Assembly (NCBI GenBank): GCA_964587625.1
Contig: CAZPLU010000007.1
Span: 5,739 to 69,738, forward strand
Direction of reading: 5' to 3'
From: an uncultured Eubacteriales bacterium
Lineage (GTDB): Bacteria > Bacillota > Clostridia > Oscillospirales > JAKOTC01
DNA length: 64,000 bases
The stretch's first letter is position 1. Each line of letters opens with the position of its first letter. This document shows, piece after piece, positions 5,893-62,811 of this stretch. The position numbers were made by a program, and so were the translations under genes. The notes beneath the pieces were generated by a model that was not told where the DNA came from, searched no databases, and saw only the letters and a list, made by a program, of their open reading frames with translations.

Positions 5893-5894
5893 AT

Positions 5895-6351: not shown

Positions 6352-6500
6352 GAGCGACTTGTCCGAAATCCGCACGGTGGGACTGTTATAATTTTTTTAA
6401 AACCCCGTTGCAATCGTCGCGGCGGGAGATGTACACTAATATTGTCAGCCGCGGACGGTTGACCACCGCGACTGATAATAATCGGGCAGGAGGGGAAAGG

Positions 6501-6626: not shown

Positions 6627-6756
6627 AATAGGCCGCTCCCCACCGACTAAGGCAAGAGCGACCTAAACCGCAAACGGGGCGTAAAGCCTGCCATTTACGC
6701 CCCTATCCTACCACATCAACGGCAGATAATCAAGAGATATTTTTAAGGAGAATATC

Positions 6757-15622: not shown

Positions 15623-17734
15623 TCACTCATCTTTCGCCTTTTTGGCATAAGTGGCTTTTTCATAGCCGCAGCCCTCTTTGACGCAATAGGTTTTCGCGCC
15701 TCTGCCCTTCTTTTGGAACATCGGGGCGCCGCACTGCGGGCATTTGTCGGGGATCGGCTCGTCCCAGGTCATGAATTTACAGTCGGGATAACCCGTGCAG
15801 CCGTAATATTTCGCGCCCTTTTTGCTCTCACGTTCGACGAGCTGCTTGCCGCACTGGGGACAAACGCCCTCGGTCTTCTTTTGAAAGGGCTTGGTGGTTT
15901 TACACTCCGGATAGCCGGGGCAGGCCAAAAATTTTCCGAACCGGCCGTTTTTGATGACCATCTTGCGGCCGCAGTTCTCGCAGGTCTCCTCGCTCTCGAG
16001 ATCGGGCAGCTTGACGCGCTGGCCCTTCATGCTCTCGGCGGCCTCGGTGAGGGTCTTTGCGAACTCGCCGTAGAACTTGCCGAGGGTCGGCACCATCTCA
16101 TTGCCGCCGGATTCGATCTCGTCGAGTTGCTCTTCCATATCGGCGGTGAAGCCGACGTCGACGATTTTCGGAAACTTTTCTTCGAGAAGCTGCGTGACGG
16201 TCTCGCCCAAGGTCGTGGGCTTGAAATTTTTACTCTCGCGCTCGACATATTCGCGCTTCAATATCGTGGATATGATCGGGGCGTAGGTGCTCGGACGGCC
16301 GATGCCCTTTTCCTCCATGATTGCAATCAGCGACGCCTCGTTGTAGCGGGGCGGCGGCTGGGTGAATTTTTGTTCGCCGGTGATGCCCTCGCAGATGGGC
16401 TTGTCGCCTTCGGAGAGGTTTGACAGCAGCGCCGCGTTCTCCTCCTTTTCATCGTTGGAGACGTCGTAGAGGGCGGTAAATCCGTCGAAGACGACGCTGA
16501 CGCCGTTGGCCTTAAAGAGATATCCGGCGCTCTCGAGCTCGACCGCGACGAGGTTTTGGACGCAGGCCGCCATCTGGCTGGCCATAAAACGCTCCCAGAT
16601 GAGTTTATAGAGTTTATACTGCTCGGGCGTGAGCGAACCCTTGACTTTTTCGGGGGTCAGGTCGGGCGTGGTCGGGCGGATGGCCTCATGCGCGTCCTGC
16701 GCGTTCTTGGCTTTATAGACATTGCGCTTTTCGGGCAAATACTTTTTGCCGTAGGCGGCTGTGATATACGCCTCTGCCGCTTTGACCGCCTCGTCGGCGA
16801 CGCGCAGGGAGTCGGTTCTCATATAGGTGATCAGACCGGTCTCGCCCACACCCGCGACATGGACGCCCTCGTAGAGTTTTTGAGCGATCTGCATCGTGCG
16901 CGCCGACGGCATCGAAAACCGCCTTGACGCGTCCTGCTGCAGCGTGGAAGTCGTGAACGGCGGAGCGGGGCGCTTGGTGCGCTTGGTGTTTTTGACGCCC
17001 GTGACGGTAAACGGGGCTTTTTGGCAGGCATCGATGACCGTATCCGCCGCCGCCTTGTCAATCAGTTTGCGTTCGCCGTTTTGATCGCCGAAGAATTTCG
17101 CCTTGAACTTGGCGCCTTTTTCGGAGAGCAGCGCTTCGACGATCCAGTATTCCTCGGGGACAAAGGCGCGGATCTCGCGCTCGCGCTCGACGATGAGGCG
17201 AACAACCACCGATTGCACGCGCCCCGCCGAGAGACCCCGCTTGACCTTCTGCCATAAAAACGGGCTGAGCTTATAGCCGACGATGCGATCCAAAATCCGG
17301 CGGGTCTGCTGGGCGTCGACGAGATCCGCGTCGATCACGCGGGGATGCTCCATGCCCTCTTTTACGCCGCTTCGGGTGATCTCGTTGAAACAGACCCTGC
17401 GCGCGGCTTTTTCGTCGAGCTTCAAGACCTTGGCAAGATGCCATGAAATGGCCTCGCCCTCGCGGTCGGGGTCTGTCGCCAAAAAGATGAAATCACTGTT
17501 TTCGGCGGCGTCTTTGAGTTCTTTGATGACCGCTTTCTTATCGGGCATTTCGATATAGTCGGGGGTGAAATCATGTTCCAAATCGACGGCGAGCTTGCCT
17601 TTCGGCAGATCCCGTATATGCCCTTTGGAGGCGATGACCTTGTAGTCGCCGCCCAAAAATCCCTGGATCGTTCGGCCCTTCTCCGGGCTCTCTACGATGA
17701 TGAGTTTTGCCAATTCTTTATACCATCCTTTCAA
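15623..17734 (-). CDS. topA: DNA topoisomerase I
   Basis: Toprim motif IIVESPEKGRTI, active-site ITYMRTDS, and three C-terminal Zn-ribbon CxxC repeats. Confidence 0.9.
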   Translation of the reverse strand: MKGWYKELAKLIIVESPEKGRTIQGFLGGDYKVIASKGHIRDLPKGKLAVDLEHDFTPDYIEMPDKKAVIKELKDAAENSDFIFLATDPDREGEAISWHLAKVLKLDEKAARRVCFNEITRSGVKEGMEHPRVIDADLVDAQQTRRILDRIVGYKLSPFLWQKVKRGLSAGRVQSVVVRLIVEREREIRAFVPEEYWIVEALLSEKGAKFKAKFFGDQNGERKLIDKAAADTVIDACQKAPFTVTGVKNTKRTKRPAPPFTTSTLQQDASRRFSMPSARTMQIAQKLYEGVHVAGVGETGLITYMRTDSLRVADEAVKAAEAYITAAYGKKYLPEKRNVYKAKNAQDAHEAIRPTTPDLTPEKVKGSLTPEQYKLYKLIWERFMASQMAACVQNLVAVELESAGYLFKANGVSVVFDGFTALYDVSNDEKEENAALLSNLSEGDKPICEGITGEQKFTQPPPRYNEASLIAIMEEKGIGRPSTYAPIISTILKREYVERESKNFKPTTLGETVTQLLEEKFPKIVDVGFTADMEEQLDEIESGGNEMVPTLGKFYGEFAKTLTEAAESMKGQRVKLPDLESEETCENCGRKMVIKNGRFGKFLACPGYPECKTTKPFQKKTEGVCPQCGKQLVERESKKGAKYYGCTGYPDCKFMTWDEPIPDKCPQCGAPMFQKKGRGAKTYCVKEGCGYEKATYAKKAKDE

Positions 17735-26646: not shown

Positions 26647-29229
26647 GTGAAAAGAGGATTTGCGGTCTTAACGGTGTTTCTTTTATTATTGGCGGGGTGC
26701 GTAAAAACGCCTTTGCCGTCCTCGTCTGTTCCCGTTTCACAGGCGGTTTCGGGTGTAACTTCGGCTGTACAATCGGCTCCGTTTTCGGCGGTAAGTCAGA
26801 TTGTTTCTTATGTCATGAAACCCGGCGACATGAGCGCGGCGGCGTTTTTGCGGCAATATTTCCCTTTGACCGACGGCTCGACCTCGACGATCCCGCTGGA
26901 CGCGGCGGTGAGAAGCGCCATTTTCAATACGGGGCTGGACTACGAAACCGACAATGTCAAGCACACGACCACGTTCGGGTCGTTTGAGCGTCTGCTCTCG
27001 GGCGAAGTCGATCTGACCTACACCGTGCCGCTCTCCGCCGAGCAAAAACAGGCCGCAAAAGACGCAAACATCGAGCTCGAAACGGTGCCGATTGCGAAAG
27101 AGGCGTTTGTGTTTGTGCTGAACGCCAAAAACCCGGTGACTTCTTTGACACAAAAACAATTAAGGGGCATTTACAGCGGAAAAATCACCAACTGGAAGCA
27201 GGTCGGCGGTAACGATGCGCCGATTGTGGCGTATCAGCGCAACAAGACCAGCGGCAGTCAGACCTATATGACCGCGTTTATGGGCGATACGCCCTTAACC
27301 GAACCGCCCAAGACGCTTGTGGCGGAATCGATGGGCGGGCTGATGGATGCGATTGCACTTTATGACAACGCCGAGAACGCGATCGGCTATTCGGTCTATG
27401 CCTACGCCGCCGATATGTACGGGACGGGCACTGAGTTAAAGTTCGCGGCAGTCGACGGGATTGCGCCCGACGATACGACGATGACAAACGGAACTTATCC
27501 GCTGTTATCGGAGAACTACGCCATTTTCCGCGCCTCGGAGCCGCAGGGCAGCCCAGCGAGAGTTCTTGCTCAATGGTTGGTGACCGAAGACGGACAGCAA
27601 GCCGTTGCGAACGGCGGGTATATCCCGTACGGCGTCGACCCCTCGACGGTCGTCTCGCACAAAAACGCGTGGAACAAGGTCGGAACGGGGCCGAAAGCGA
27701 CCGGGGAAGAGACCCTGCCGACAAGCTATTACAAGGCGGATGTAAATGAGACCAGTCATAACGGTACTTGGACTGACGGCGCATACACCGTCACACTGCT
27801 TGACGAAAGAGAACTAAAAATTTCTAACCGGGATCGGTATACTTCCGAAAGCGTCGTTTGGGATATCCGTGCCGATTTTACCGGGCTGAACGATGATAAA
27901 AAGAATGCCCAAATTACTAAATTTTTGAATGACTCGATCGCACAACTGAAGACCGAGAGCTCAGAAGTCGAGGCCTATGTCAGACGGTTGAATCTTGATG
28001 CGCAAAAGAAATTGAATACTTATTATGAGGTTTACGGAATAAGCTGTCAATGGCATCGGAATGAGGACGTAATGTGGAAAAGCGCTGTGCAGATCGATAT
28101 TCAATGTTATAACGGGTATTTGTCGGCGGCGGTTTTTCTGAGTTACTACGGGTCTGAGGAAAGCGGCATCTATGATTGTAAAACTGCGATTTTTGACTTA
28201 TATACCGGCAAGCAGGTTCCATTCACCGATCTGTTTTATTCGGGAGCAAATATCGCCGATCGATTGAACTCCGCCGTGAAGCAATATGTAAACGATAATC
28301 TGAATTGGGACATGGGGTACGCACATATCCGCCATGAAAACCCCATTGTGACCGACGAGGTGAAGAATTTTACGCTGAATCAAATCTATTACCCCCGCAT
28401 CAACCATTGTTTTAACGGAGGACTGATGGTGGAATTTGATATTTTTACCGAAAATTCACAGGTCGGTATGCTGCGCAATATGGACGGAATGTGGAAATCG
28501 GCGATCAATGTCTACCGAACCGCACTGACCGAAACGGTTGGTTCCGGACAGCGCAGGAACGGGGTATTGATGGACAAGGAAAAATGGTTTTATGCGGTTG
28601 AAGCGGATGACTATGTTTCTCGGGCGGCTGCGGATAAAATCAACGCTTCCGTCCTTGCATATATCGATGACGTACATTCGAAACCACTGATAGATTATTA
28701 TAAAGAAACCGGAATGACGCGCAACGAGCTTGTTTTATATTTCAATCCGGGGATTGATGATAATCTGAAAAGCACATTGGACGATTATCTCAATGACCGG
28801 GGCGGCACGATTGAAAAAATTCTCGGAAATGGAATTACCTATAATCAAAACGCACCCACTGTAATTTGCGGGAAGTGTGTGGTCTATCCGCGGGCAGGGG
28901 CATATTTTTGGAGCGGTTTTCTCAGCGACTATCCGCTGACATTTTATCTGCCTGTCTGCTTGATTTTCGATATTGATACCGGAGAACCGATACAACTTTC
29001 AAAATTATTCTTAAACGGATGGGAAAAGGCTGCGAAATGGAGTGAAATTTCGGCGACTTATTACTCAAATTCTGAACCAACGGAGATACCCGACGTCAAT
29101 AATCTGGTGCTTGTCGATTTACTGTGGGGGAGGGGGTACGCGACGCAATCAGTCGCAACATTTATGACCCATGACGGCAAAAAGACCTACCGGGCGGAAA
29201 TCCCCGGGGAATATTTGAATTTTGATTGA
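26647..29229 (+). CDS. Lipoprotein: PstS-like PBP domain fused to DUF3298/RsiV-like C-terminal region (paralog B)
   Basis: GTG start after aggaggg. Lipobox LLAGC. Same architecture as 24085..26619. The C-terminal half is diverged but collinear. Confidence 0.65.
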   Translation: MKRGFAVLTVFLLLLAGCVKTPLPSSSVPVSQAVSGVTSAVQSAPFSAVSQIVSYVMKPGDMSAAAFLRQYFPLTDGSTSTIPLDAAVRSAIFNTGLDYETDNVKHTTTFGSFERLLSGEVDLTYTVPLSAEQKQAAKDANIELETVPIAKEAFVFVLNAKNPVTSLTQKQLRGIYSGKITNWKQVGGNDAPIVAYQRNKTSGSQTYMTAFMGDTPLTEPPKTLVAESMGGLMDAIALYDNAENAIGYSVYAYAADMYGTGTELKFAAVDGIAPDDTTMTNGTYPLLSENYAIFRASEPQGSPARVLAQWLVTEDGQQAVANGGYIPYGVDPSTVVSHKNAWNKVGTGPKATGEETLPTSYYKADVNETSHNGTWTDGAYTVTLLDERELKISNRDRYTSESVVWDIRADFTGLNDDKKNAQITKFLNDSIAQLKTESSEVEAYVRRLNLDAQKKLNTYYEVYGISCQWHRNEDVMWKSAVQIDIQCYNGYLSAAVFLSYYGSEESGIYDCKTAIFDLYTGKQVPFTDLFYSGANIADRLNSAVKQYVNDNLNWDMGYAHIRHENPIVTDEVKNFTLNQIYYPRINHCFNGGLMVEFDIFTENSQVGMLRNMDGMWKSAINVYRTALTETVGSGQRRNGVLMDKEKWFYAVEADDYVSRAAADKINASVLAYIDDVHSKPLIDYYKETGMTRNELVLYFNPGIDDNLKSTLDDYLNDRGGTIEKILGNGITYNQNAPTVICGKCVVYPRAGAYFWSGFLSDYPLTFYLPVCLIFDIDTGEPIQLSKLFLNGWEKAAKWSEISATYYSNSEPTEIPDVNNLVLVDLLWGRGYATQSVATFMTHDGKKTYRAEIPGEYLNFD
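26953..27528. repeat. Near-identical block shared with paralog A (copy 2)
   Basis: See 24376-24951. Confidence 0.85.
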
Positions 29230-48834: not shown

Positions 48835-48987
48835 GTTCATTTCCTCACAAATTTGTATTGCCCCGATCAAATATAAACGGTTTTAACGAAAAATTCAATC
48901 CCCATGTCCCGGCTCATATCGGCGCAACACAAATCAAAAAGACCGATCCCGACAACCGGTCTCTTGAAACCCTTTTTATCCCGGACT

Positions 48988-50427
48988 TTATCGCGCGGCG
49001 GAAGCGGGTTCTCCGGCGGCGACGACTTCGCGCGCTCCGCGCATCAATTCCCCGATCGTGACGTCGGGGTTTGCGATACCCGCCTCGATGATCCCGACGC
49101 TCTGCTCAAACAGCGCGTCCAAGTCCTCGGGATACAGGATTTTGACCAGATGTTCAAACTGGAAGTCGAGACCGCCCTCGAGGAAATTCGGGATGACAAC
49201 GGTATACAGCGACATGATGAAACGTCCGGTGCTGTAATTGCCCATTTCGCAGACCCAGCCCTCGGGGAGATTGATCGAAAACGGGAAGCAGGAAAACATC
49301 ATGGAAGACGTCCCCGAAAACATCGGTCTGTGTTCGATTTTTTTGATCTCTCTGTCCAAAAAGATCGCCCACAAATAGTCCGTGTGGCGCAGGATCAGAT
49401 ATTGAACCTCCTGCGTGATCGCGATTGCCTGTGCAAATGTCTTGTCCCGTGTGATCACGGTTCGCAGCGGAAGCGCGTTGACGCGGCAGCCGCCGGATCG
49501 CTTATCCGCCAGCGTGATTCTTCGGTCAAAAGCGACCATGAAATTGACATCGTCGGTCTCCTCGTTGATTTTCGAGAGATAGGTGCGCATTCCGACATAG
49601 ATCACCGTCTGCAAAGGAATGCCGTTTTTTTCGCAATAGGCGAGGATCGGTTCGGCCCTTTCCCTGCTCAGGTGCTTGCTGTATTTTTTGCTTTTATCGA
49701 TCAATATGGTGTTCACCGTCTCAAAGCGCCGCGTCGGATCTTTGCTTTTACGGCGAAAACGATTGAGCAGCCGCATCCCGTCCGCCCCCGCATAAAACGA
49801 CGGTCCGTTCTTCGTATAATAATCCATAAAAAAATCCCTGTGCTTTTCCTTCTCTTCCTCGTTGTCAAAAACAAGCAGGTCTTTTTTCATACACTCCTCA
49901 AACGAAGCGAGCGGCTTGGGCATCGGGGTTTTGTTTTGAAGAGCGCCGATGATTTCAAGCAGGTCGGTAAAAAACAAAAGCACCGCATACACATCTGCGA
50001 TCACATGGCAGATATTTAAATAGATGCCGGTGCGCCCGTCATGCGTCCGATACAAGATGATTCGGTACATCTCGCCGCGCCGGATTTTCAGCGGGGTGCG
50101 CGCGTCTTTTTGAAGCACCGCGTCCTGCTCTTCGGCGGTCTTGCCCGTGAAATCCAAAACCGGGATATGCTCAAGCTTATATTCCGGCATAAAATATTGC
50201 ATACGCTTTCCGTCGTGTTTTTGAAACCGGATGCGCATACTGTCGTTTCGCGCGATTTCGATATTGACCGCCTGCTTCAACAGGTCGAAATCGAGCTTTT
50301 GATTGAGAATCGTGTACAGGACGATTTGCGTGATCTCCTTGTGCAAACTGTACTGCAATTCCAAAAGTGGCAGCATCTGAGACCCGCGGATTTCATAATA
50401 CTTTTTTTTAACTGCGCTTTTTGACAT
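48988..50427 (-). CDS. Stand-alone condensation (C)-domain family acyltransferase
   Basis: 479 aa. HHxxxDG-type motif present as CHVIADV (second His and Asp retained) at the expected position of about 150 aa. ATG at 50427 after ggggga, 25 nt after the permease stop. Confidence 0.65.
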   Translation of the reverse strand: MSKSAVKKKYYEIRGSQMLPLLELQYSLHKEITQIVLYTILNQKLDFDLLKQAVNIEIARNDSMRIRFQKHDGKRMQYFMPEYKLEHIPVLDFTGKTAEEQDAVLQKDARTPLKIRRGEMYRIILYRTHDGRTGIYLNICHVIADVYAVLLFFTDLLEIIGALQNKTPMPKPLASFEECMKKDLLVFDNEEEKEKHRDFFMDYYTKNGPSFYAGADGMRLLNRFRRKSKDPTRRFETVNTILIDKSKKYSKHLSRERAEPILAYCEKNGIPLQTVIYVGMRTYLSKINEETDDVNFMVAFDRRITLADKRSGGCRVNALPLRTVITRDKTFAQAIAITQEVQYLILRHTDYLWAIFLDREIKKIEHRPMFSGTSSMMFSCFPFSINLPEGWVCEMGNYSTGRFIMSLYTVVIPNFLEGGLDFQFEHLVKILYPEDLDALFEQSVGIIEAGIANPDVTIGELMRGAREVVAAGEPASAAR

Positions 50428-50452
50428 AAAATTTCCCCCTGCCTTACTGCCG

Positions 50453-53400
50453 TTATTCAACGGCTTTCAACGATTCGACCATGCTGATGCCGCGCATGCG
50501 CTTGGTCATCATCAGGTTTACAGAGACGATGTAAAACGCGGTGAGCAGACCGGCATAGAGATAGCTTGCCGCCGCGATCTCCCCGGCGAACTTGACCATA
50601 TCCGCCTCGACCGTCCGGAGCATGAACTGCGCCAAAAAATATCCGATCACACCGCCGAACAAAATCCCGACGGCGCCCATCACAAAGTTTTCTCGGAAAA
50701 TATACATATTGGTCTCGCCGTGCTTGAAACCGAGCACCTTGATGGTCGCGATCTCCCGCGTGCGTTCGGAGATGTTGATGTTGGTCAGGTTGTAGACCAC
50801 CACAAAAGCTAGCGCGCCCGCGGAGATCAGCATGACGAGGATGATGATGTTGATGCTGTTGATGGTTTCGGTAAACGACGCTCTTGCCGAATCGATATTG
50901 ACAATGGCAAGAATGTCGCCGCTTTTTGTCAGCCAGTCGGACACGAAGCCCCCAAAATCCGTCATTTTCGCGCTCTCGGCGCACGCGATGGAGTTGAACC
51001 GGAGGTCTTTGCCGAAGGTCTGTTCATAACGCGCGGGCGACATGTAGATGTAGTGGTAGATGTAGTTCTCCGTGACACTGCGTACGGGCAGTGTATACGG
51101 CTCCTCGTTGACGCGGAATGTGACGGCATCCCCCGCGCCGACGCCCAGCAATTGCGCCAGTTTATCGGTGATAATCACGCCCTCATCGCCGAGTTCGAGC
51201 GTTTCCCCGCTCTTTGGATCGCGCAGGGTGATCAGCCGTTCCAAGTGGGCGATTTTCCGCGGCGCCATCACAAAGACGTTTCGAATCACGGCTCCGTTTT
51301 GATCCGCTTCGACGGACACGATCTTTGAAAACAAAGTATCGCTCAGCCGCTCATCGTTTGAAAGCCGCTGCCCCAGCGCGTCCGCCTCCTCGCGCGTCAA
51401 CTCCCCGGACAGCGTGAACATGATCTTGTAGCGGTTGATCTCGCCGTATTGTTTATCCACAATCGGGTTCACGCCGTCCCGCATCCCGAAACCCGCCACG
51501 ATCAACGCCATGCAGCCCGAGATTCCCAGCACCGTCATCACCAGCCGCAGCTTATAGCGGAACAGGTTGCGCGCCGTAATCTTTTGGGAAAACGTCATTT
51601 TCGTCCAGAGTTTCTTCCAGCGTTCCATGAATATTTTCCGACCGCTCTTGGGCATTTTGGGGCGCATCAGCGCGGCGGTCGGCGTCCTCAGTTCTTTGTA
51701 ACAGGAATAAAAAGCCACCATCACCGTGCATAACAGAGCGACAAACACGGAAACCAGAGACATATTCCAGGGAACCGTGATTTCGATGTCGGGCAGCCGA
51801 TAGAGCGCGTTATAGGCCCCGATGATCACCCTCGGCAGAATTTGAATGCAGACCAGCTGTCCGAGCACGCTCCCGAGGACGCAGGCGGTGGCGGAATAGA
51901 CCATGTATTTGCCCGCTATCTGCGCGGACGAATACCCCAGCGCCTTGTAGGTGCCGATTTGAATCCGCTGCTCGTCGATCATGCGGGACATGGTCGTCAG
52001 GCAGACCAGCGACGCCACCAGCAGGAAAAACACCGGGAAAATCGCCGCGATGGCGTCGATGCGCTCCGAGTCCTGGTCAAACCCCGCATAACTCTGAATG
52101 ATGTCGTCGCGGGTGAACGCGTACCATTTACCGGATTCGATTTCGCTGAACATGCTTTGGATGTTTTTGATGCGGTTCGCCCCGTCTGCAATCGAGCTTT
52201 GCGCATTGGCGAAGGCATCCAAATACTCGGCATACCCGTCATTGTATTCTTCGAGTCCCGCCGCATACTGCCGTTCAGCCGCATCGAGCTTTTCTTTCGC
52301 CTGCGCCAGTTGATCCAGTGCGGCGGCTTTTTGTTTTTCATACGCCGCCTCGCCCGCCTTGAATTCGGTCTGGGCGGTCTCCAACAGCAATCGGTTGGTT
52401 TTCAGCTGCACACCCGCTTCATCCAATTCACTCTTTCCTCTTTTATATTCCGCCTCTCCGCTTCGCAGTCCCTCGAGCGCCAAATCCAGCTCCGCTTTGG
52501 CTTTGTCCAGTCCTGCGCGGGCAATCTCCAACTGCTGTTTTGCGGCATTCAACTCCGCCTCGGCCTCCAGCAGCTGTTTTTCGTACCCCTGCAGCATTTG
52601 AATGGCGTTTTCCAGCTCTTGCAACGCCTGCGCGCCCCGGTCTTCTGCGTTCGTGACCCGCCCGGCAGCCGCCTGAATCTGCTCCCGCAGCCGGGCGATC
52701 ACTTCCGGGTCGTCCCCGCCGCTGTCCAAATACGCCTCAAGCGCCGCCTGCGCCTGTTGATAGAGCGCTTCCGCTTCCTCTTGATCGATCTCTTCGCCGT
52801 TGACGGCCTCCTGCGCCATCGCAACGGTCTGCTGCGCGGTGTTGTAGAGCCGTTTTGCCGGTTCGAATTTTTCCATGGCCTCGGTGTATTGCGTCAGCCC
52901 GCCGTTGTACAATTCCTCGTTTTTTTGGTATTCTTCCAAACCGTAGTCATATTGCGCCCAGCCGTCGTCCAGTTGCTCGCGCGCGTTTCGAAGCTTCGCC
53001 TCCCCCTCGTCATATTTGGCCAGACCGATTGCCAGCTGCGCCTTTCCCTCTGAAATCTGCGCTCTGCCCTCTTCCAGCTCCGCTTCGGCTTTTTTAAGCA
53101 TGGCCTCCGCTTCAAGCGCGGCTTTTTCATATTCCTTCCGGCCGGCGTCGATTTCCGCCCCGGCCTGATCGAGTTCCGCCTTGGCTTGATCCAGTTTCAG
53201 CTTGACGTCGGCAAGCTGTCGGTCGGCTCCGCTTTTTTGCGTTGCCAGCTCATTTTCCGCATCTTCAATCCGAGTCCGGATGTTGTATAAAAAAAGCTCA
53301 TAGCTGGCACGCCCGATGATTTCGATTTGAGCCGATGCGCTTTTGATATCCGCGTCATATTGCTCGTCAAATGCGGAAACCCCGGCCGCGCGGCACAACA

Positions 53401-54064
53401 GGACATATAACTCCGTATAGCGGGTATATTTGAATTCGGCGGCGGGCAGCATGATATAATACGAGATGGTGCCGTTTCCGATCGAGGAGGTGCCGTAGGA
53501 ATACGAAATATGCTGGGGTGATTGGATCAACCCGACCACCGTGTAGTTCGTACCGGAAATAACGGTGTCCGTGGCGGTCGGACCCGCCGCCTCGGAAAAG
53601 CGGATGATGTCGCCGACAGCGATATCCGGATCGCGCATGCGGTACGGTGCGGCGAGGCATTCCCCGGGGTTTTCGGGCATACGTCCGGCAATCAATCGAA
53701 TTTGATTGAGTTTGTCCGTTCCATTCTCCAACGGCAACGCGGAGACACGGGCCACACTGTTCCCCGTCTCCTCCGAGACAATCAGGTCGGCGGAATAAGA
53801 AGGCATCACCCCCCTCACGCCGTCGAGGGCGCGAAGCGCCTCTACGTCTTTATCGTCGAAACCGACGGTCGAAATCAGCTCCAGATCCATCAGGGAAGAG
53901 GAATTGAAATAATTTTCGGCTGTTTGCCGCATGCTGGGCGCGGTCGTCTTGACGCCCACAAAGAATCCGACGCTTAAAAAGGTGATTAAAACGATGGAAA
54001 TAAACCGCTCGCGGGAGCGCAGTATCTCCCGGCGGGTGTCCTTGATCAGCGTTTTCGATCTCAT
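50453..54064 (-). CDS. ABC transporter permease, double FtsX/MacB-type, with ~380-aa coiled-coil insertion
   Basis: 1203 aa. Layout: TM1, MacB-like extracytoplasmic domain, Ala/Glu/Lys/Gln-rich helical region (aa 262 to about 640), FtsX TM bundle, second extracytoplasmic domain, second FtsX bundle. Confidence 0.8.
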   Translation of the reverse strand: MRSKTLIKDTRREILRSRERFISIVLITFLSVGFFVGVKTTAPSMRQTAENYFNSSSLMDLELISTVGFDDKDVEALRALDGVRGVMPSYSADLIVSEETGNSVARVSALPLENGTDKLNQIRLIAGRMPENPGECLAAPYRMRDPDIAVGDIIRFSEAAGPTATDTVISGTNYTVVGLIQSPQHISYSYGTSSIGNGTISYYIMLPAAEFKYTRYTELYVLLCRAAGVSAFDEQYDADIKSASAQIEIIGRASYELFLYNIRTRIEDAENELATQKSGADRQLADVKLKLDQAKAELDQAGAEIDAGRKEYEKAALEAEAMLKKAEAELEEGRAQISEGKAQLAIGLAKYDEGEAKLRNAREQLDDGWAQYDYGLEEYQKNEELYNGGLTQYTEAMEKFEPAKRLYNTAQQTVAMAQEAVNGEEIDQEEAEALYQQAQAALEAYLDSGGDDPEVIARLREQIQAAAGRVTNAEDRGAQALQELENAIQMLQGYEKQLLEAEAELNAAKQQLEIARAGLDKAKAELDLALEGLRSGEAEYKRGKSELDEAGVQLKTNRLLLETAQTEFKAGEAAYEKQKAAALDQLAQAKEKLDAAERQYAAGLEEYNDGYAEYLDAFANAQSSIADGANRIKNIQSMFSEIESGKWYAFTRDDIIQSYAGFDQDSERIDAIAAIFPVFFLLVASLVCLTTMSRMIDEQRIQIGTYKALGYSSAQIAGKYMVYSATACVLGSVLGQLVCIQILPRVIIGAYNALYRLPDIEITVPWNMSLVSVFVALLCTVMVAFYSCYKELRTPTAALMRPKMPKSGRKIFMERWKKLWTKMTFSQKITARNLFRYKLRLVMTVLGISGCMALIVAGFGMRDGVNPIVDKQYGEINRYKIMFTLSGELTREEADALGQRLSNDERLSDTLFSKIVSVEADQNGAVIRNVFVMAPRKIAHLERLITLRDPKSGETLELGDEGVIITDKLAQLLGVGAGDAVTFRVNEEPYTLPVRSVTENYIYHYIYMSPARYEQTFGKDLRFNSIACAESAKMTDFGGFVSDWLTKSGDILAIVNIDSARASFTETINSINIIILVMLISAGALAFVVVYNLTNINISERTREIATIKVLGFKHGETNMYIFRENFVMGAVGILFGGVIGYFLAQFMLRTVEADMVKFAGEIAAASYLYAGLLTAFYIVSVNLMMTKRMRGISMVESLKAVE

Positions 54065-54104
54065 GCCCGCCCCTCTTTTGACACGGCCCGGATCGTCCTG
54101 CGGC

Positions 54105-54809
54105 CTACCATTCCAGCTCCTCCACGCCGACGGGCGCGGGGTTGATGTCGATGGACGCCACCGAGCCGTTGCGCATCCGGATCACACGGTTCGCCATGGG
54201 GGCGATCGCCGCGTTATGGGTGATCAAAACCACCGTCATTTTTTGCCGTTTACAGGTCTCCTGCAGCAGCGCAAGAATCTTTTTACCCGTGATATAGTCC
54301 AATGCGCCGGTCGGTTCGTCGCACAGCAGCAATTTCGGATTTTTTGCCAACGCGCGCGCAATGGCAACCCGCTGTTGTTCCCCGCCCGAGAGCTGCGAGG
54401 GGAAGTTATGTACGCGCTCGCCCAAGCCGACGCTGGAGAGCACCTCCGCGGCGTCGAGGTCGCTGTCGCAGATCTGTGAAGCGAGCTCCACGTTCTCGGC
54501 GGCGGTCAAATTCGGTATCAGGTTATAAAACTGAAAAACAAACCCGATGTCCATCCGCCGATATTGAATCATCTTCGTCTCCGAGAGTGCGCTGACCTTT
54601 TTCCCGTCGACGACGATATCGCCCTCGTCGCAGTTGTCGATGCCGCCGAGCATATTCAGCACGGTGGTTTTGCCCGCGCCGCTGGCGCCGGAAATTACGG
54701 CAAACTCCCCTTTTTCGATCGTGAAATTGACGGCGTCGGCAGCCGTGATGGTCACTTCGCCCATTTGATATCTCTTGCAGACATCCCTGAAAACAATATA
54801 CGATTCCAT
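54105..54809 (-). CDS. ABC transporter ATP-binding protein (MacB/LolD-like)
   Basis: Walker [10 protein letters not shown], signature [15 protein letters not shown], Walker [12 protein letters not shown] at 54809; the track ORF uses an upstream TTG. Confidence 0.85.
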
Positions 54810-54838
54810 CGAAACCCCGCCGACGCGTCCCCGGGGAA

Positions 54839-55093
54839 TCAAAGAACTCGGCGGCTGTTTTGGCGCACAGCCGTCTCTTTTTCGAGATATGCGATCACAT
54901 CGCTTATATATTGAAAATTGATCGCCTCCCGCTCGGGAATTTCCACCCCGAATTCCCTCTCCAAGACCGTGACCAGATGGATGAACTCCAACGAATTCAG
55001 CCCCAAATCCTTTTGCAATTCGGTCTCGGCCGTGATTTCCCGCGGATCCAAAACAACGTATTCGGCCAAGAGCGCAATGATCCGTTCCAACAT
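54839..55093 (-). CDS. Acyl/peptidyl carrier protein
   Basis: 84 aa. Phosphopantetheine attachment context DLGLNSLEFIHLV. Confidence 0.8.
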   Translation of the reverse strand: MLERIIALLAEYVVLDPREITAETELQKDLGLNSLEFIHLVTVLEREFGVEIPEREAINFQYISDVIAYLEKETAVRQNSRRVL

Positions 55094-55137
55094 AAAAAAA
55101 CCCTTCTTTTCCTTAAAATGATTTTATTTGATCGGTG

Positions 55138-56880
55138 TCAAACTGTGATACCTTCCCCGTAGGCGGACTTGTTTTGCTCCTCGATGACCTTATGGCGGAT
55201 CACTTTTTTCGTTGTCGTGCGCAAAAAATCCTCCTGCGTGATAAACAGCCGATGCAGTTGCTTGTACCCGGGCAAGAGCTGGTTGACCCTGCGGATGTCC
55301 TCGGCGACCAATCGCTCGATGGCCTCCTGGTCCATCTTGTCGACAAACTCCTCCACCTCGATCTTCAGCGCGGCCGCAATCGTCTGCATCAGCGTTTCTT
55401 TGACCTGATAATGATAGGAATAGACCACCGCGTCCCTGACATAGGGCATCTGCCGGATGATCTTTGCCTCGATTTCCTCCGGATGCACGTTTTTGCCGTT
55501 GTTCAAGACGATCAGGTTCTTTTTTCTGCCGACCACGGTGAGCGTCTGACCTTTCAGCACGCCGTAATCGCCGGTTTTCAGCCAACCGTTATCGAAAGTC
55601 GCGGCCGTGGCCGCCTCGTCTTTATAATAGCCCAGCATCACAACATCGCCTTTGACATAGATTTCACCGACGCCGTTTTTATCAGGCCGATCGATTTTCA
55701 ACTGCACCCCGGACAACGGCTTGCCGACGGATTCGGGGCGCCGATGCGCTTTGGGATTGACCGAGACGCCGGGCGAACACTCGGTCAACCCATAGGCGGT
55801 GAGCACGTCGATTCCCATGCCGTGAAGACCCCGTATCGCCTCCGGATCGACTGCGGCGCCTCCGCACATGACCCGGTTGAATTTGCCGCCCAAATTTTCC
55901 TTGAGTTGTTTGAACAGCACCTTCCGAATATCGATGCCCACCGCGAGCAGCAAATTGGATATCCTCAGCGCGGCGCGCAAATCCCGGGTGCGGTTTTGCC
56001 GTTTGGTCTCCGCCCAGATGGTCTTGTACACGGTTTCCAAAAACAGCGGAACCACGACCGACATGCCGGGTTTTACGGCCCTCATCGTCTCCAATAACCG
56101 CTTGAGAGAGGCGCAGAGATAGATGTCGATGCCTTTTAATATCCCGGGAAGGATATGGCAGTTCAATTCAATCGTATGGTGAAACGGCAGCATGGAAAAG
56201 GACTCGGATTCGCAGGGCGCAACTTTCAGGATGTTATAAACATTGGTGCAGAGGTTTTTGTGGCTGAGCATAACGCCCTTGTTCGGACCGGTCGTCCCGG
56301 AGGTAAACAGGATCACGGCGGCTTTTTCGCGGTCGATCTGCCTGTCTTGATATCTCCGGTCTCCGCAGCCGATCCGTTCTCTGCCGTGCCGGAGCATACC
56401 GGACAGCGTGTCGGCCTCGGCCACGCCCGGGAGCGGTCCCATCGAAAAACACCTCACCCCCGCGTCCTCCGCTTTTTTGGCCGCCGCGTGAAAAGACGGA
56501 GCATAAAACAACGCGCTTGCGTCGCCCTTGAGCGCCAAATCCCTGAGGTCTTCATCGGGCAGCTCCTTGTCGAGGGGGATGATCACGCCCACCCCGCATA
56601 TCACCGCCATGTAAGTGATAAACCACACATACGAGTTCTCGCCCACCAACGCGATATGCGCGTCCGCGAAACCGTAATCCAACAGCGCCGTGCCCAACGC
56701 GCAGACATCGTCGAAAATATTTTGACAGGAATACCGCACGATTTCGTCGTTTTTGGTCTCGCGCAAAACCGTTTTGCCGCCGTGCAGACGCATCGACTCT
56801 TGTAACAACTCTCTCAAATCAGACAGCGGCGCCGTCGGTAAAAGCAGCCGCTCCGTTGAAAACGCAGGACGATTTTTCAT
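55138..56880 (-). CDS. AMP-dependent synthetase/ligase (long-chain acyl-CoA synthetase / fatty acyl-AMP ligase-like)
   Basis: 580 aa. Adenylation core motifs ILFTSGTTGPNKGVMLSHKNL, YGLTEC, GWLKTGDYG and GRKKNLIVLNNGKNVHPEEIE. Confidence 0.85.
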   Translation of the reverse strand: MKNRPAFSTERLLLPTAPLSDLRELLQESMRLHGGKTVLRETKNDEIVRYSCQNIFDDVCALGTALLDYGFADAHIALVGENSYVWFITYMAVICGVGVIIPLDKELPDEDLRDLALKGDASALFYAPSFHAAAKKAEDAGVRCFSMGPLPGVAEADTLSGMLRHGRERIGCGDRRYQDRQIDREKAAVILFTSGTTGPNKGVMLSHKNLCTNVYNILKVAPCESESFSMLPFHHTIELNCHILPGILKGIDIYLCASLKRLLETMRAVKPGMSVVVPLFLETVYKTIWAETKRQNRTRDLRAALRISNLLLAVGIDIRKVLFKQLKENLGGKFNRVMCGGAAVDPEAIRGLHGMGIDVLTAYGLTECSPGVSVNPKAHRRPESVGKPLSGVQLKIDRPDKNGVGEIYVKGDVVMLGYYKDEAATAATFDNGWLKTGDYGVLKGQTLTVVGRKKNLIVLNNGKNVHPEEIEAKIIRQMPYVRDAVVYSYHYQVKETLMQTIAAALKIEVEEFVDKMDQEAIERLVAEDIRRVNQLLPGYKQLHRLFITQEDFLRTTTKKVIRHKVIEEQNKSAYGEGITV

Positions 56881-56992
56881 AAGGTTTTCCCCCGTTCAAA
56901 CCGAAAAAGTGATTTTCGGTGAAACCGTAAAATGAAAATAAAAAACACGCAAAATATTTTTTAAATCCGGGCATGAGATAATCCTATGTCCT

Positions 56993-57020
56993 ATCATACA
57001 ACTAAAATGACACCTGTCAA
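56993..57020 (-). promoter_or_regulatory. Candidate sigma-A promoter of the ligase-carrier-ABC-condensation operon
   Basis: Minus strand: TTGACA (57020-57015), 16-nt spacer, TATGAT (56998-56993). It lies in a 350-bp AT-rich gap. Confidence 0.3.
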
Positions 57021-57159
57021 TCGCTAATTTTGGATTTTTTTGGGAGCTTTTGTAAAATTCGGTCGAACACGGAAAACGGCATGTTTAAAGGATATAACAC
57101 ATTCTGTAAATTGAATTGTACGAGAGATTTTATTCAAGTAAACCGCAATCAAATCCACT

Positions 57160-57200
57160 TCGAAAAGCGCAGCACCCCGCGTTAAAAACGCGGGGTGCTG
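57160..57200 (-). terminator. Rho-independent terminator ending the upstream redox operon
   Basis: 11-bp stem agcaccccgcg / cgcggggtgct, followed on the minus strand by gcgcttttcg. Confidence 0.6.
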
Positions 57201-57227
57201 TGCCTCGATCGGATCGGGCGCTTTGTT

Positions 57228-57420
57228 TTAACGCATCGGATGCGGCTCATTGATACCATTATGCGCCCTGTACAGCGCGGCATAAATCCCGGCGGACAGC
57301 GGATCGCTGAATACGGTTTCAAATCCGAAGATCTCATGATACCATGCCGCCGCCGCGTCAAAATCCGAGACGGGCAAATAAGCATATCCGCTTGACAGAT
57401 TGATCGAATTTTCTTTTATG
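57228..57420 (-). pseudogene. Possible glyoxalase/VOC-family fragment (N-terminal half only, no canonical start)
   Basis: YAYLPVSDFDAAAAWYHEIFGFETVF resembles the first beta-alpha-beta-beta-beta module of a VOC domain. The reading frame ends after about 60 aa. No ATG/GTG/TTG lies between the upstream stop (57421) and the conserved block. Confidence 0.3.
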
Positions 57421-57855
57421 CTATAACAGCTCCCTAATCTCAAATGTTTCGCGCGAACCGGGATAATACCGGCCTTTTTCGGCAGTGAATTTAAAAACGC
57501 AGTAATCGTCGTCGGTGACGCCCTTGGGGTAATAGCACTCAAAGCCCTCGCGCCATAAAAGCTCTTTATGATAAGAATCGGTGCAGACCTGCATCGTGCC
57601 GGTCAGCATCAACCCGTGATACGCCGGTTCATCGCAGTAATAAATACACGCTTTCGGGTTCTTCATAAACTGAGCAACCCTCTTTGACGAAACATTGGTC
57701 GAAAAATAGTGGATGCCTAACCCATCACGTTGTAATGACAACATGGCCTTGGTGTTGGGGTATCCGTTTTCGTCCACCGACGAAACATAGACGTTTTTCG
57801 CGTTTTCCACCAGCGCGTTGATTTCTTTTTTTATCAGTCCGGTCATTTTATTCAC
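57421..57855 (-). CDS. Pyridoxamine 5'-phosphate oxidase-like FMN-binding split-barrel protein
   Basis: 144 aa. VYVSSVDENGYPNTKAM...ACIYYCD...GLMLTGTM pattern. Confidence 0.7.
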   Translation of the reverse strand: MNKMTGLIKKEINALVENAKNVYVSSVDENGYPNTKAMLSLQRDGLGIHYFSTNVSSKRVAQFMKNPKACIYYCDEPAYHGLMLTGTMQVCTDSYHKELLWREGFECYYPKGVTDDDYCVFKFTAEKGRYYPGSRETFEIRELL

Positions 57856-58423
57856 CCGCCAATTTTTTCATCGGCTCGCCCCATTTTGCGACGGCGTGCC
57901 CGTCCCACGAAAAATAGGTGCCGCCCACGGTGCAGGCCGGGCGGAGCATGCGGAGTTTTTCCTCGAACGAAACCGAATCGTCACACAGCGCCTCGTCGGC
58001 CAATATATTGCGGATCTTGCACAGATAGACATCGACCCCGCCGTCCTTGAAGGTCTTATCGACCTCCAGCTCGAACGTCCACGGGCATTTTTCCAGTACC
58101 GGGACCGCCAGCGCTCGGCCTTTTTCCACGCCGGCGCCGATCTTCATCTTGTCCGCGTCATAGCCCGATGTGCAGCCGAAATAATCGGCCATAGGCAATA
58201 AATCCTCGGTCACGAGCCCCATCGAAAAGACCCCGTTTCTGCGGATGTTGTCGCGCGTGCGCTTGTCCTCGCAGATCGCGGCCATCACGCCCAAATTCTC
58301 GCCCCAATAATAACTCACCCAGCAAAACAGCCCGAAATCCGGCGTGCCGTCGCCGTTGTATGTGCCGTAGACGAACAGCGTCTGCGGGCAGAACCCGTTG
58401 GAAATACCCATTGATTTTTTCAT
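57848..58423 (-). CDS. Flavin reductase-like domain protein (paralog 1)
   Basis: MKKSMG...LFVYGTYNGDGTPDFGLFCWVSYYW... Start chosen by alignment with the paralog. Confidence 0.65.
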   Translation of the reverse strand: MKKSMGISNGFCPQTLFVYGTYNGDGTPDFGLFCWVSYYWGENLGVMAAICEDKRTRDNIRRNGVFSMGLVTEDLLPMADYFGCTSGYDADKMKIGAGVEKGRALAVPVLEKCPWTFELEVDKTFKDGGVDVYLCKIRNILADEALCDDSVSFEEKLRMLRPACTVGGTYFSWDGHAVAKWGEPMKKLAGE

Positions 58424-58489
58424 AAAAATGACCGCCCTTTCACGCGCGAACATGACCGCGCCTTAAACAATTGTTCGGTGGCATCTGCT

Positions 58490-59080
58490 CTATTTTTCCC
58501 CATCCCGGTCCATATGGACTTTTTTCATCGGTTCACCAAAAGAACCGGCCGCGGTGCCGTCCCATCTGAAATAACATTGACGGACCGATTGCATGGGCCG
58601 GATCCGATTCATCCACTGTTCGACATCTCGGGGCTCGTCCGAGATGGATTCCTCGGCGAGAACATTTCTGACCTTGCAAAAAAACACCTCGCTGCCCTCC
58701 AGTTCAAGAGAGCGTCCGACTTCCAACTCATAAATCCACGGGCTTTTTGCAAGAACCGGGACGTCGAGAACCCGTCCTTTTTCCGTTTCGACCGGAACAC
58801 GCATTTTATCCTTTTGATACCCCGGCGTGTTCCCGAAATAGTCGGCAAGCGGCAGTAATTCCTCCGTGACGAGGTTGGCGGAAAAGACCCGATTCGCCCG
58901 GATCCGGTCTTTGGTCAGTTTTTCGCCGCCGATACAGGCCATTACGCATGTCTCTGTGTCAAAACAATAACTGAGCCAGGAAAACAGCCCGAAATTGGGT
59001 GTTTTGTCCTCTTTGTAGGTGCCGTAAAGAAACAGCGTCAGGGGGCTGAAATGCCTGATCAAAGGCAATGATTTTTTCAT
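58490..59080 (-). CDS. Flavin reductase-like domain protein (paralog 2)
   Basis: MKKSLPL...LFLYGTYKEDKTPNFGLFSWLSYC... Collinear with 57848..58423, with roughly half the residues shared by eye. Confidence 0.65.
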   Translation of the reverse strand: MKKSLPLIRHFSPLTLFLYGTYKEDKTPNFGLFSWLSYCFDTETCVMACIGGEKLTKDRIRANRVFSANLVTEELLPLADYFGNTPGYQKDKMRVPVETEKGRVLDVPVLAKSPWIYELEVGRSLELEGSEVFFCKVRNVLAEESISDEPRDVEQWMNRIRPMQSVRQCYFRWDGTAAGSFGEPMKKVHMDRDGEK

Positions 59081-61560: not shown

Positions 61561-62658
61561 TTAATAATCCCGTATCTCCCTTGGATTTGTATCCCGCTTA
61601 CTGAGTTCCGGCGACCAATACCTTACCCACTCATTTGTCTCTTGATAATCCGGGTGGTCGGGGTTCATCATAATCTCGCGGAAATCCAAAAACCCGCTCA
61701 CACCGCCAACATCCTCGGGCGGGGTTTGCCCGCTCGCTTCTGACAAATAGGGCGAAGGTTTATCGTAATCTTCGATCACGCGCACCAGTTTTATTTCATG
61801 CTCCCATCTATCTCCGAAATCATATGTGTATAACATCTTTTTATGCTTCGGTAAAATCTCAGACAGAATATGCCCCCTCATTAAGATTTCATTCTCCGCG
61901 TAATCGAGGTCTTCATTAAAAGGCACAAGTTCAACCGCCGGTTTGCCGTTGCTGCCAAAAACGGTAAAACGATAAAGATGGCGATTACGCCAATTAAAAA
62001 TTTCTTGCAGCACTTTGTGCAACCGTTCAAATTCCAAACTCTCAGGCACGATAATTTTTCGTACCGCTTTATAAATTTTTAAATCAAGCGTCACTGATAA
62101 TTCAAAAGCGCGATATTTATAGGCCTGCTTCCCTGTGAGCGCGCACAGTTCGGCGATCATTTTTTCGCGGGGGAAAAAGCAGTTATCGGTCGAACGGTTG
62201 ACCGGAATATTATTTACAAAAGCGCCCATCGTATCACAAAACATTTTATCGACACCGTTGTAATCATATGCCACTCGGTCTGCACTGTATTGCCCCGCTT
62301 TTGTCACCCATGCCGATGCCGATCTGTTATGATTTTCCGTGAACTCGATTTCACCCGCCGAACGCATGTATTCTTCCACGATCTCGGGGTTTATGTTCGC
62401 ATATAAAAAGGTATTTGCAATGGCCTTTTTGATGATTTCCGCCGTGTTTTTCAAGTCCCTGCGTTTGAATTCATAAACAGCAACGGTAAAACGCGTGGCG
62501 TTGTTCACCAGCACGAGCATATCGTTCGCCCTGCGATTGTCCCAAACTTTTACCCAGTTCGCCGTCCAGCAAAACAGCGGATTGACCGCTTTGCGCGCGG
62601 ATTGGGGTTTTAGGTCCAAAGCGGCGGCGAATTTTTTCGTCAGTGCAATTTGCATCAT
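61561..62658 (-). CDS. pRiA4b ORF-3-like (PF07929-type) family protein
   Basis: C-terminal hallmark YTYDFGDRWEHEIKLVRVIE...PPEDVGGVSGFLDFREIMMNPDHPDYQE. Low GC relative to its neighbours. Start at the ATGATG at 62658/62655. Confidence 0.7.
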   Translation of the reverse strand: MMQIALTKKFAAALDLKPQSARKAVNPLFCWTANWVKVWDNRRANDMLVLVNNATRFTVAVYEFKRRDLKNTAEIIKKAIANTFLYANINPEIVEEYMRSAGEIEFTENHNRSASAWVTKAGQYSADRVAYDYNGVDKMFCDTMGAFVNNIPVNRSTDNCFFPREKMIAELCALTGKQAYKYRAFELSVTLDLKIYKAVRKIIVPESLEFERLHKVLQEIFNWRNRHLYRFTVFGSNGKPAVELVPFNEDLDYAENEILMRGHILSEILPKHKKMLYTYDFGDRWEHEIKLVRVIEDYDKPSPYLSEASGQTPPEDVGGVSGFLDFREIMMNPDHPDYQETNEWVRYWSPELSKRDTNPREIRDY

Positions 62659-62811
62659 GTTCTTCCCTTCGTCAGAATTCATAAAACCCATGCATGCCGC
62701 AACCATTATACTACAATCCGTTGAAATCAACAAATAAAATATCGTATTTTGGGCCCTGCCGTGGTATAATATGAAAAATGCTTTCCGCGATTACAATTTG
62801 GGAGGAAAACC

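Follow-up and report, generated by a model that had tools for sequence, protein, structure and literature searches.

Fatty acid amide (FAA) gene clusters of the nonribosomal peptide synthetase (NRPS)-like kind were reportedly first described, from gut Clostridia, by Chang et al. in 2021, a study cited in the paper on the enzyme OaaC. In this pathway a fatty acid is attached by a free-standing ligase to an acyl carrier protein (ACP) that also stands alone, and a condensation (C) domain, free-standing as well, then joins the acyl group to a freely diffusing small amine (PMC13310621). The Oaa pathway has been reconstituted in vitro, with OaaA loading oleate, and OaaC, which acts as free-standing condensation enzyme in the pathway to oleoyl-aminovaleric acid in Coprococcus eutactus, has been crystallised (PDB entry 12KH; PMC13310621; Singh, Grant and Gulick, JBC 2026). 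FAA C domains have been defined operationally by similarity seeded with OaaC, a length of 300-520 aa and free-standing adenylation (A) and carrier proteins as neighbours (PMC13310621). The ecf and ebf clusters of Enterocloster clostridioformis and E. bolteae likewise encode stand-alone C, carrier (T) and A proteins, belong to the same family by their authors' definition, and yield N-acyl amines, N-acyl lysines and N-acyl polyamines (PMC10871352). Here, we analysed a five-gene operon within 64,000 nucleotides of DNA from an uncultured Eubacteriales bacterium (assembly GCA_964587625.1, contig CAZPLU010000007.1, positions 5,739 to 69,738; this whole stretch is referred to as the window). The operon encodes a ligase, a carrier and a stand-alone C enzyme together with the two components of a MacB-type ATP-binding cassette (ABC) pump. 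The FAA chemistry of such a ligase-carrier-C triad is already known; apparently new here is the MacB-type pump embedded in an FAA-type operon; the characterised oaa and ecf/ebf clusters are without one.

Homology of the ligase-carrier-C triad to the Oaa pathway

The five open reading frames (ORFs) lie contiguously on the minus strand (48988-56880) and are listed in the order of transcription:

55138-56880 (-): ligase, 580 aa, with PF00501 AMP-binding (6e-54) and AMP-binding_C_3 domains
54839-55093 (-): carrier, 84 aa, with a PP-binding domain (1.7e-12)
54105-54809 (-): ABC ATPase, 234 aa, with an ABC_tran domain (9e-36)
50453-54064 (-): permease, 1203 aa, with two FtsX stretches (4e-29)
48988-50427 (-): stand-alone condensation-domain enzyme, 479 aa, with a single PF00668 domain (2.8e-24)

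An earlier reading of the window, made from the letters and the ORF translations (the sequence-only reading), had placed five co-directional genes at these coordinates with gaps of about 25-45 nt, and had named their domains and diagnostic motifs. The ORF check returned the same coordinates, the gaps measured 44, 29, 40 and 25 nt in the order from ligase to C gene, all cited motifs were present at their exact positions, and the domains were as that reading had named them.

The C enzyme aligned end-to-end (aa 7-462) with chain A of 12KH (aa 4-462; E = 4.6e-48), whereas the runner-up among solved C domains, the starter domain C1 of CDA synthetase, reached E = 3e-9. The OaaC sequence was rebuilt from the alignment, and the oaa locus was then located in Coprococcus genomes at 93-100% identity. 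The C protein encoded at this locus is 28% identical to that of the window (1e-49), OaaA is 31% identical to the window ligase over the full length (E = 2e-71), and OaaACP is 40% identical to the window carrier. As ligase, carrier and C enzyme all match the oaa locus, the whole Oaa triad is homologous and not the C domain alone. With its similarity to OaaC, its length of 479 aa and a free-standing A protein and carrier in the same operon, the window C enzyme agrees in all three respects with the published operational definition, by which the operon is, as judged from its sequence, a deep branch of the FAA NRPS-like family. Its relation to oaa is one of distant homology and not of orthology.

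The sequence-only reading had proposed that the operon follows thiotemplate logic, in which the ligase loads the carrier and the stand-alone C enzyme transfers the acyl group, and this is upheld by the homology to Oaa. It had also taken the pathway to be undescribed, which no longer holds for these three proteins, all of them homologs of the reconstituted OaaA/OaaACP/OaaC pathway. The further expectation that the operon is not orthologous to a characterised cluster survives in part: the operon is homologous to oaa, but distantly so (28% for the C enzyme), and the embedded pump is absent there.

The oaa cluster of C. eutactus resembles the window operon in its three free-standing proteins (ANL ligase, ACP and C domain) and in the retained xHxxxD core. 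However, oaa has its genes in the order C-ACP-A, accompanied by a TetR-like gene, and the window in the order A-ACP-ATPase-permease-C, the active-site motif is DHRLMDS in oaa and CHVIADV in the window, and the oaa host belongs to the Lachnospiraceae whereas the window stems from an uncultured Oscillospirales-like lineage. In addition, no MacB-type pump occurs within 8 kb of oaa, while the pump of the window lies inside the operon. The 208-aa ORF beside oaaA is the TetR-like gene and not one for a phosphopantetheinyl transferase (PPTase). The ecf/ebf clusters differ in their accessory genes: a hydrolase, a PPTase and a lipid-transfer protein of the SCP2-like kind are encoded there but no ABC pump, whereas the window has the pump and none of these three.

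The active-site motif CHVIADV occupies aa 140-146 of the C protein (window positions 49990-50010). H141 and D145 were invariant in alignments of 25 and of 88 C homologs, so that the catalytic histidine that the sequence-only reading had assumed is indeed retained. The ends of the motif vary by clade: the window has CHVIADV and close relatives have SHVIADL, while HHLVMDN stands in 48 sequences, most of them from Acutalibacteraceae, and DHRLMDS is the Oaa form. In the published FAA motif logo, (D/H)HxxxD(S/A/G), the second histidine is more than 99% conserved, the aspartate is highly conserved and position 7 is variable (PMC13310621).

The AlphaFold2 (AF2) model of the C protein (pLDDT 89.5, pTM 0.89) had as its nearest solved folds in a Foldseek search the lipo-initiation starter C domains CDA-C1 and RzmA (TM-score 0.77-0.86, E ~1e-28); the PDB library used ends at 2026-04-08 and predates 12KH, so that OaaC could not appear among the fold matches. 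Starter C domains have been reported as the nearest neighbour class of FAA C domains (PMC13310621). Both the OaaC sequence match and these fold matches are consistent with a place of the window enzyme in the monophyletic FAA clade, to which the starter C domains are sister. For the window enzyme they (CDA C1, 4jn3/5dua; RzmA, 7c1h) are both the best structural and the best non-FAA sequence match, and they share with it the acyl donor. However, they reside within megasynthetases and use acyl-CoA or acyl-ACP donors and a carrier-bound amino acid as acceptor, while the window C enzyme is free-standing and has no acceptor carrier. No N-terminal signal-like or membrane-spanning segment was present in the sequence or the model of the C protein. 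Its homology predicts that the enzyme forms an amide bond between an acyl-ACP and a free amine.

The best NCBIfam models for the ligase were long-chain-fatty-acid--CoA ligases, all of them under their cut-offs, and the amino-acid adenylation model scored 108 bits against a cut-off of 317. Its nearest solved relatives were MenE and fatty-acyl-CoA and feruloyl-CoA synthetases, with CoA ligases reaching 6e-25. The sequence-only reading had left undecided whether the loaded acid is a fatty acid or an amino acid. As the ligase is acyl-CoA-synthetase-like and OaaA-like and stays far below the amino-acid adenylation cut-off, a fatty acid is the likely substrate. The adenylation core TSGTTGPNKG lies at aa 193-202, and relative to OaaA (521 aa) the 580-aa ligase carries an insertion of ~24 aa after ETVYKTIW.

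The sequence-only reading had also suggested inspecting the ligase for the insertion specific to fatty acyl-AMP ligases (FAALs). This insertion, ~20 aa long and located, as generally described, in the N-terminal domain, blocks CoA thioesterification. The spacing from A5 (YGLTE) to A6 (GEIYVKG) in the window ligase is ~37 aa, that is 6 aa more than in OaaA, and the FAAL 3pbk matched with 6e-12 over aa 401-487 only. An FAAL identity was rejected on this weak match and on the lack of an FAAL-size insertion, the comparison being made through OaaA and not through an FAAL sequence. The carrier matched ACP models below the cut-offs of the housekeeping AcpP models (NCBIfam). Its GLNSLEF motif lies at aa 31-37, with Ser34 in LGLNSLEF as the phosphopantetheine serine; the corresponding OaaACP motif is LGFSSLDF.

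What the operon shares with DltABCD and with the mycobacterial FadD-PapA-MmpL/Drr systems is the general logic, in which adenylating enzyme and carrier are combined with an acyltransferase and an envelope transporter. A PapA-type system was rejected; polyketide synthase and MmpL genes are absent, and among the solved proteins of the C family OaaC is by a wide margin the one closest to the C enzyme.

The embedded pump and its linkage to the triad

The ATPase gave the best NCBIfam matches to LolD (2e-62), DevA (5e-61), FtsE (8e-56) and MacB (3e-54), and its solved relatives MJ0796, LolD and MacB were found at 1e-51 to 1e-44, with LolD and MacB at 1e-49 to 1e-44. DevBCA is the exporter of heterocyst glycolipids. 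The Walker A (GASGAGKT), signature (LSGGEQQR) and Walker B (LLLCDEP) motifs were all located. The permease consists of two fused FtsX units with eight transmembrane (TM) helices, arranged around two extracytoplasmic domains (ECDs) as TM1-ECD1-TM2-4 and TM5-ECD2-TM6-8. Seven helices are clear from hydropathy (TM1 at aa 21-39, TM2-4 at 671-788, TM5 at 841-859 and TM6-7 at 1073-1145), and the eighth (~1165-1192) comes from the AF2 model only. The first ECD comprises ~630 aa (aa 40-670) and the second ~210 aa. Within the first, aa 256-645 form a stretch of ~390 residues in which Ala, Glu, Leu and Gln abound and prolines number 2 only. In the AF2 model of the permease (aa 1-1200, pLDDT 76) this part runs as one continuous helix over 234-422, is interrupted over 423-452 and returns in two helices (453-568 and 572-640), which may be read as an antiparallel hairpin with arms of ~190 residues, corresponding to ~28 nm at 1.5 A per residue.

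In the sequence of the permease, similarity to any solved permease was marginal (best 6.5e-5), and PF12704 did not match at E <= 0.01, although homologs of 68-73% identity carry precomputed PF12704 matches. A Foldseek search with the model returned E. coli YbbAP first (1e-15), followed by BceAB, HrtBA, MacB, LolCDE and YtrEF, those of YbbAP, BceAB, MacB and LolCDE lying at 1e-15 to 1e-10, and the isolated periplasmic domains of MacB, LolC/E and YknZ matched at 1e-4 to 4e-7. Together with the ATPase models, these type VII fold matches bear out the MacB-type pump proposed from the sequence alone. According to one report, YbbAP draws hydrophobic compounds out of the inner membrane (PMC12646458).

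The type VII transporters (YbbAP-TesA, MacAB-TolC, LolCDE, YtrEF, BceAB) share with the window permease the FtsX four-helix topology with a large ECD after the first helix, and also the LolD/MacB-type ATPase. YbbP is, in addition, fused and duplicated like the window permease, and both YbbAP and LolCDE take lipidic cargo from the outer leaflet. Unlike these relatives, the window pump comes without a MacA-like adaptor, a TolC or a partner hydrolase and has the ~390-residue helical stretch in its first ECD instead. No gene for a membrane-fusion adaptor or an outer-membrane duct was present in the operon or its flanks, and a tripartite pump of the MacAB-TolC type was rejected for this reason. By analogy, the window pump probably works by the same mechanotransmission principle as MacB; the modelled hairpin may stand in for the adaptor. 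The pump probably serves as an exporter of the operon's product.

Relatives of the C enzyme were gathered through an 8-sequence alignment. At E <= 1e-30, the stand-alone C family comprised 135 clusters at 50% identity. The sequence-only reading had expected the five-gene set to be co-conserved, and this was the case in several related genomes. Two other metagenome contigs have the same gene order and products. The window order was also found in Bacillota metagenome-assembled genomes (MAGs; loci L003, L010 and L014, C identity 64-70%) and in MAGs of Christensenellales/Oscillospiraceae (L017 and L019, 40-43%). Other arrangements were C-A-ACP-ATPase-permease (L018, L020), C-A-ACP-PPTase-ATPase-permease (L098), A-ACP-PPTase-ATPase-permease-C (L252), ATPase-permease-C-C-ACP (L004) and, in L007, C-A-ACP-PPTase beside a pump encoded on the other strand. 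The link between pump and triad thus occurs in six gene orders among uncultured Oscillospirales/Christensenellales-like Clostridia, and in some of the related clusters a PPTase gene adjoins that of the ACP. The close relatives include MAGs with names suggesting anaerobic digesters.

In the pump-linked sister loci, the ATPase is 60-91% identical to that of the window throughout, and across 11 pump-linked loci, which are not phylogenetically independent, permease and C identity to the window correlated with r = 0.97. Some 60 loci, mostly from Acutalibacteraceae and Ruminococcaceae, have A-C-ACP or C alone and no pump. Neighbour-joining trees of the C proteins were built from FAA-like sequences only. 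In the tree of 88 proteins rooted on the Oaa clade, the pump was present in every member of the window clade with an observable flank. L098 and L252 branch below the window clade and also below a large pump-less clade, suggesting that the pump linkage is old and was later lost in the latter.

Several observations on the relatives of the C enzyme and the permease stand apart from this linkage. In L004, whose C protein is 49% identical, two different stand-alone C genes follow the permease in tandem (3893-5290 and 5334-6716) and precede the ACP, a hint that this lineage may use a pair of acceptors or acylate in two steps. About 15 loci of the Acutalibacteraceae type carry a stand-alone C gene without a ligase or carrier homolog within 10 kb (SHIIMDA in L023, L028, L040, L051, L056 and L077; HHLVMDN in L030, L032, L035, L042, L045 and others); the acyl donor of these orphan C enzymes is possibly a housekeeping acyl-ACP or acyl-CoA. 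For the double-FtsX permeases that measure 1100-1300 aa and contain a long helical insertion (L096, L097, L179-L258), the ATPase is nearly always the sole conserved partner, and the copy in [Ruminococcus] lactaris is surrounded by unrelated genes. A limited literature search found no functional description of this permease architecture, nor a description of a pump-linked FAA variant. TopA of the window (15623-17548) is 88-90% identical to that of the Eubacteriales MAG CAZTDA01 and at most 58% identical to those of all other genomes found, mostly Acutalibacteraceae and Oscillospiraceae, while the C enzyme at the permease-C locus of CAZTDA01 (L011) is 67% identical. From these sequence comparisons, the C enzyme appears to diverge much faster than TopA or to have been exchanged between lineages.

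Proposed mechanism and alternative explanations

We consider it likely that the operon is a module for making an FAA (N-acyl amine) in the manner of OaaA/OaaACP/OaaC and that it brings its own exporter. The five genes would be transcribed as a single mRNA from the predicted promoter (57020-56993) to the predicted terminator (48965-48937). By homology to Oaa, the ligase would adenylate a free fatty acid and hand the acyl group over to the carrier, at the phosphopantetheine arm of Ser34, this carrier having been primed beforehand by a PPTase. A cytoplasmic C enzyme would then, again as suggested by its homologs, combine this acyl-ACP donor with a free small amine to give an N-acyl amide by means of His141 and Asp145. 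The amphiphilic amide would partition into the membrane, from whose outer leaflet two ATPase copies and one fused permease might, in what is the least supported step, pull it and expel it by ATP-driven mechanotransmission; the ~28-nm hairpin of the first ECD may reach into or through the thick wall. The loading and condensation steps are proposed because of the homology to a reconstituted system, those of membrane entry and export because of the gene linkage and the precedents of YbbAP, LolCDE and MacB. Product, acceptor amine and pump role are thus all inferred.

A number of points weigh against this proposal. For the clade of the window, product, substrate and transport activity are predicted from homology and gene linkage, and the C enzyme is only ~28% identical to OaaC. 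CHVIADV lies outside the published FAA logo at position 1 (Cys) and position 7 (Val), with the catalytic core kept, and because of this departure the acceptor chemistry could differ. No PPTase is encoded in the window, so that priming of the carrier would need one encoded elsewhere. The geometry of the hairpin was taken from the secondary structure of the model and not from coordinates, and confidence is low in the middle of the arms. Also, some members of the type VII class, FtsEX among them, are mechanotransmitters that do not transport. Relatives of the permease occur in at least 594 species representatives, among them Listeria, Enterococcus, Paenibacillus and Blautia, and a sample of 80 permease-homolog loci had the ATPase adjoining in 73 and C, A or ACP genes in 2.

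As the pump family is this generic, the role of the pump could also be protection and not export. In such a system the triad would still make an N-acyl amide, with the pump protecting the producer itself or conferring resistance in the manner of BceAB or YtrEF, by holding a membrane-active product or some other envelope stress off the producer's membrane. The permease resembles the folds of these two and of HrtBA besides those of MacB and YbbAP. Some FAAs are cytotoxic, N-myristoyl-putrescine having an IC50 of 15 uM on Caco-2 cells (PMC10871352), and most members of the pump family are not located beside biosynthetic genes. However, the closeness with which pump and C enzyme are inherited together (r = 0.97) speaks for a role tied to the product, and the two roles are hard to separate, since extracting an amphiphile made in the cytoplasm from the membrane would be export and protection at once. 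We regard a purely protective pump as rather unlikely. That pump and biosynthetic genes adjoin by chance and are functionally unrelated would fit the wide distribution of a pump family usually found elsewhere, but the pump genes lie between those of carrier and C enzyme within one transcription unit with gaps of 25-44 nt, and the partnership survives six gene orders down to ~30% protein identity, which leaves chance adjacency next to no credibility.

The sequence-only reading had favoured acylation of the envelope, whereby the C enzyme would acylate a larger envelope-bound acceptor or make a lipoamino-acid lipid, and the pump would flip or install the conjugate in the outer leaflet or wall. 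The N-acyl lysines and N-acyl polyamines of ecf/ebf do resemble membrane lipoamino acids, pumps of the LolCDE type handle lipid-anchored cargo, a long hairpin could deliver into the wall, and both the motif and the acceptor side of the window enzyme are divergent. Specific support was, however, not obtained: the C protein has no signal-like or membrane-spanning segment, its characterised relatives use freely diffusing small amines, and no glycosyltransferase, MBOAT, teichoic-acid or lipid-synthesis genes are conserved with the operon among the sister loci. Envelope acylation is thus considered improbable. A Dlt-like or aminoacyl system, in which the ligase would activate an amino acid or another non-fatty carboxylic acid for transfer to an acceptor by the C enzyme, draws on the fact that the substrate of an ANL enzyme is not assignable from sequence alone and that all NCBIfam matches stayed below their curated cut-offs. 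However, CoA ligases for fatty-acyl, aryl and succinylbenzoate substrates make up the best models and solved relatives, with the amino-acid model far below its cut-off, the ligase is a full-length homolog of the oleate-loading OaaA, and the C fold is nearest to starter C domains with acyl donors. Neither DltB (an MBOAT protein) nor DltD genes were identified among the neighbours of the operon, and no Dlt model was among the NCBIfam matches listed for the ligase (the best 25 of 93) or the carrier. As the ligase is not DltA-like and DltB and DltD were not identified among the neighbours, this explanation was rejected as highly improbable.

An FAA module with its own exporter would have consequences beyond the window. 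The operon differs from known FAA clusters in its ligase subtype, its divergent motif, its taxonomic home and its embedded type VII ABC pump. FAAs of gut Clostridia are reported to act on human G-protein-coupled receptors, and some are linked to inflammatory bowel disease. No exit route of these amphiphiles from the cell is described in the FAA literature covered, and a pump wedged among the biosynthetic genes and co-inherited over six gene orders is a concrete, testable candidate for export. The operon would also give a functional foothold for the widespread, apparently unstudied 1100-1300-aa double-FtsX permeases with a long helical hairpin. In one study, 95% of known FAA clusters were located in Clostridium cluster XIVa; the present loci extend the pathway well beyond the Lachnospiraceae into uncultured Oscillospirales-like lineages. 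The products may be new, because the lineage is uncultured and Oscillospirales-like and the active-site motif is divergent. A more far-reaching version, in which the pump-linked clade is a distinct, uncharacterised acyl-amide branch whose giant permease, with its ~28-nm hairpin, is a dedicated wall-spanning extruder of the lipid amide, is tentative and we rather doubt it. In that version no export apparatus for bacterial FAAs would have been identified before this pump, and a permease architecture of at least 594 Firmicutes species representatives would receive its first functional assignment; the divergent CHxxxDV motif on the acceptor side could mean a new acceptor class and hence new products, and the digester-like names of MAGs among the close relatives would make the branch more than a trait of the human gut. 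Current understanding is not overturned by these results, which are an incremental lead and not a new kind of system.

Operon boundaries and surroundings

A Shine-Dalgarno sequence precedes each of the ATG starts of the five genes, and none precedes the alternative upstream TTG starts (54842 and 50460). The gap 5' of the operon (56881-57227) measures 347 nt with 39% GC, compared with 55% in the operon, and the 3' gap (48841-48987) measures 147 nt. The sequence-only reading had described an AT-rich upstream gap of ~350 bp with a terminator and a promoter and a downstream gap of ~150 nt; both upstream elements were located, and the downstream gap also holds a terminator:

57205-57165 (approximate): terminator hairpin of the upstream gene, within the 347-nt gap, read directly from the sequence
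57020-56993 (-): predicted sigma-70-type promoter, TTGACA-16-TATGAT, 11/12 consensus matches, a prediction only
48965-48937 (-): predicted intrinsic terminator with a 12-bp stem and a T run behind it, 22 nt past the stop codon of the C gene

The predicted promoter lies ~112 nt from the start codon of the ligase. Regulation by a riboswitch or leader was rejected, as no Rfam match occurred anywhere in the 64-kb window and no conserved leader was kept across the sister loci compared.

The flanking genes encode a weakly GNAT-like protein, MarR, an FMN-binding protein, and PNPOx-like and flavin-reductase-like proteins. As they differ between the sister loci and are not conserved with the operon there, the system appears to consist of the five genes only. 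The surroundings are ordinary chromosome with LigA, Lhr helicase, sulfatase, heparinase-like and fucosidase genes, and PlsX-, TrmFO-, TopA- and DprA-like ORFs, judged by sequence only, are also present in the window.

Just before the terminator hairpin of the upstream gene ends a 49-aa ORF (57228-57377, minus strand) with a glyoxalase/VOC profile match to the first ~30 positions only (20.5 bits), which is probably the remnant of a truncated gene. Further upstream of the operon, a PNPOx-like gene (57421-57846) is preceded by two tandem paralogous flavin-reductase-like genes (57848-58453 and 58490-59080, minus strand); the pair and the PNPOx-like gene occur in L001 and L002, two identical contigs, and not in the sister locus L003. 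Two other tandem paralogues of ~800 aa (24085-26619 and 26815-29229, plus strand) each have one PBP_like_2 domain and a long uncharacterised remainder. Near the end of the window, a 381-aa protein with PRiA4_ORF3 and DUF6933 domains is encoded at 61561-62706 on the minus strand.

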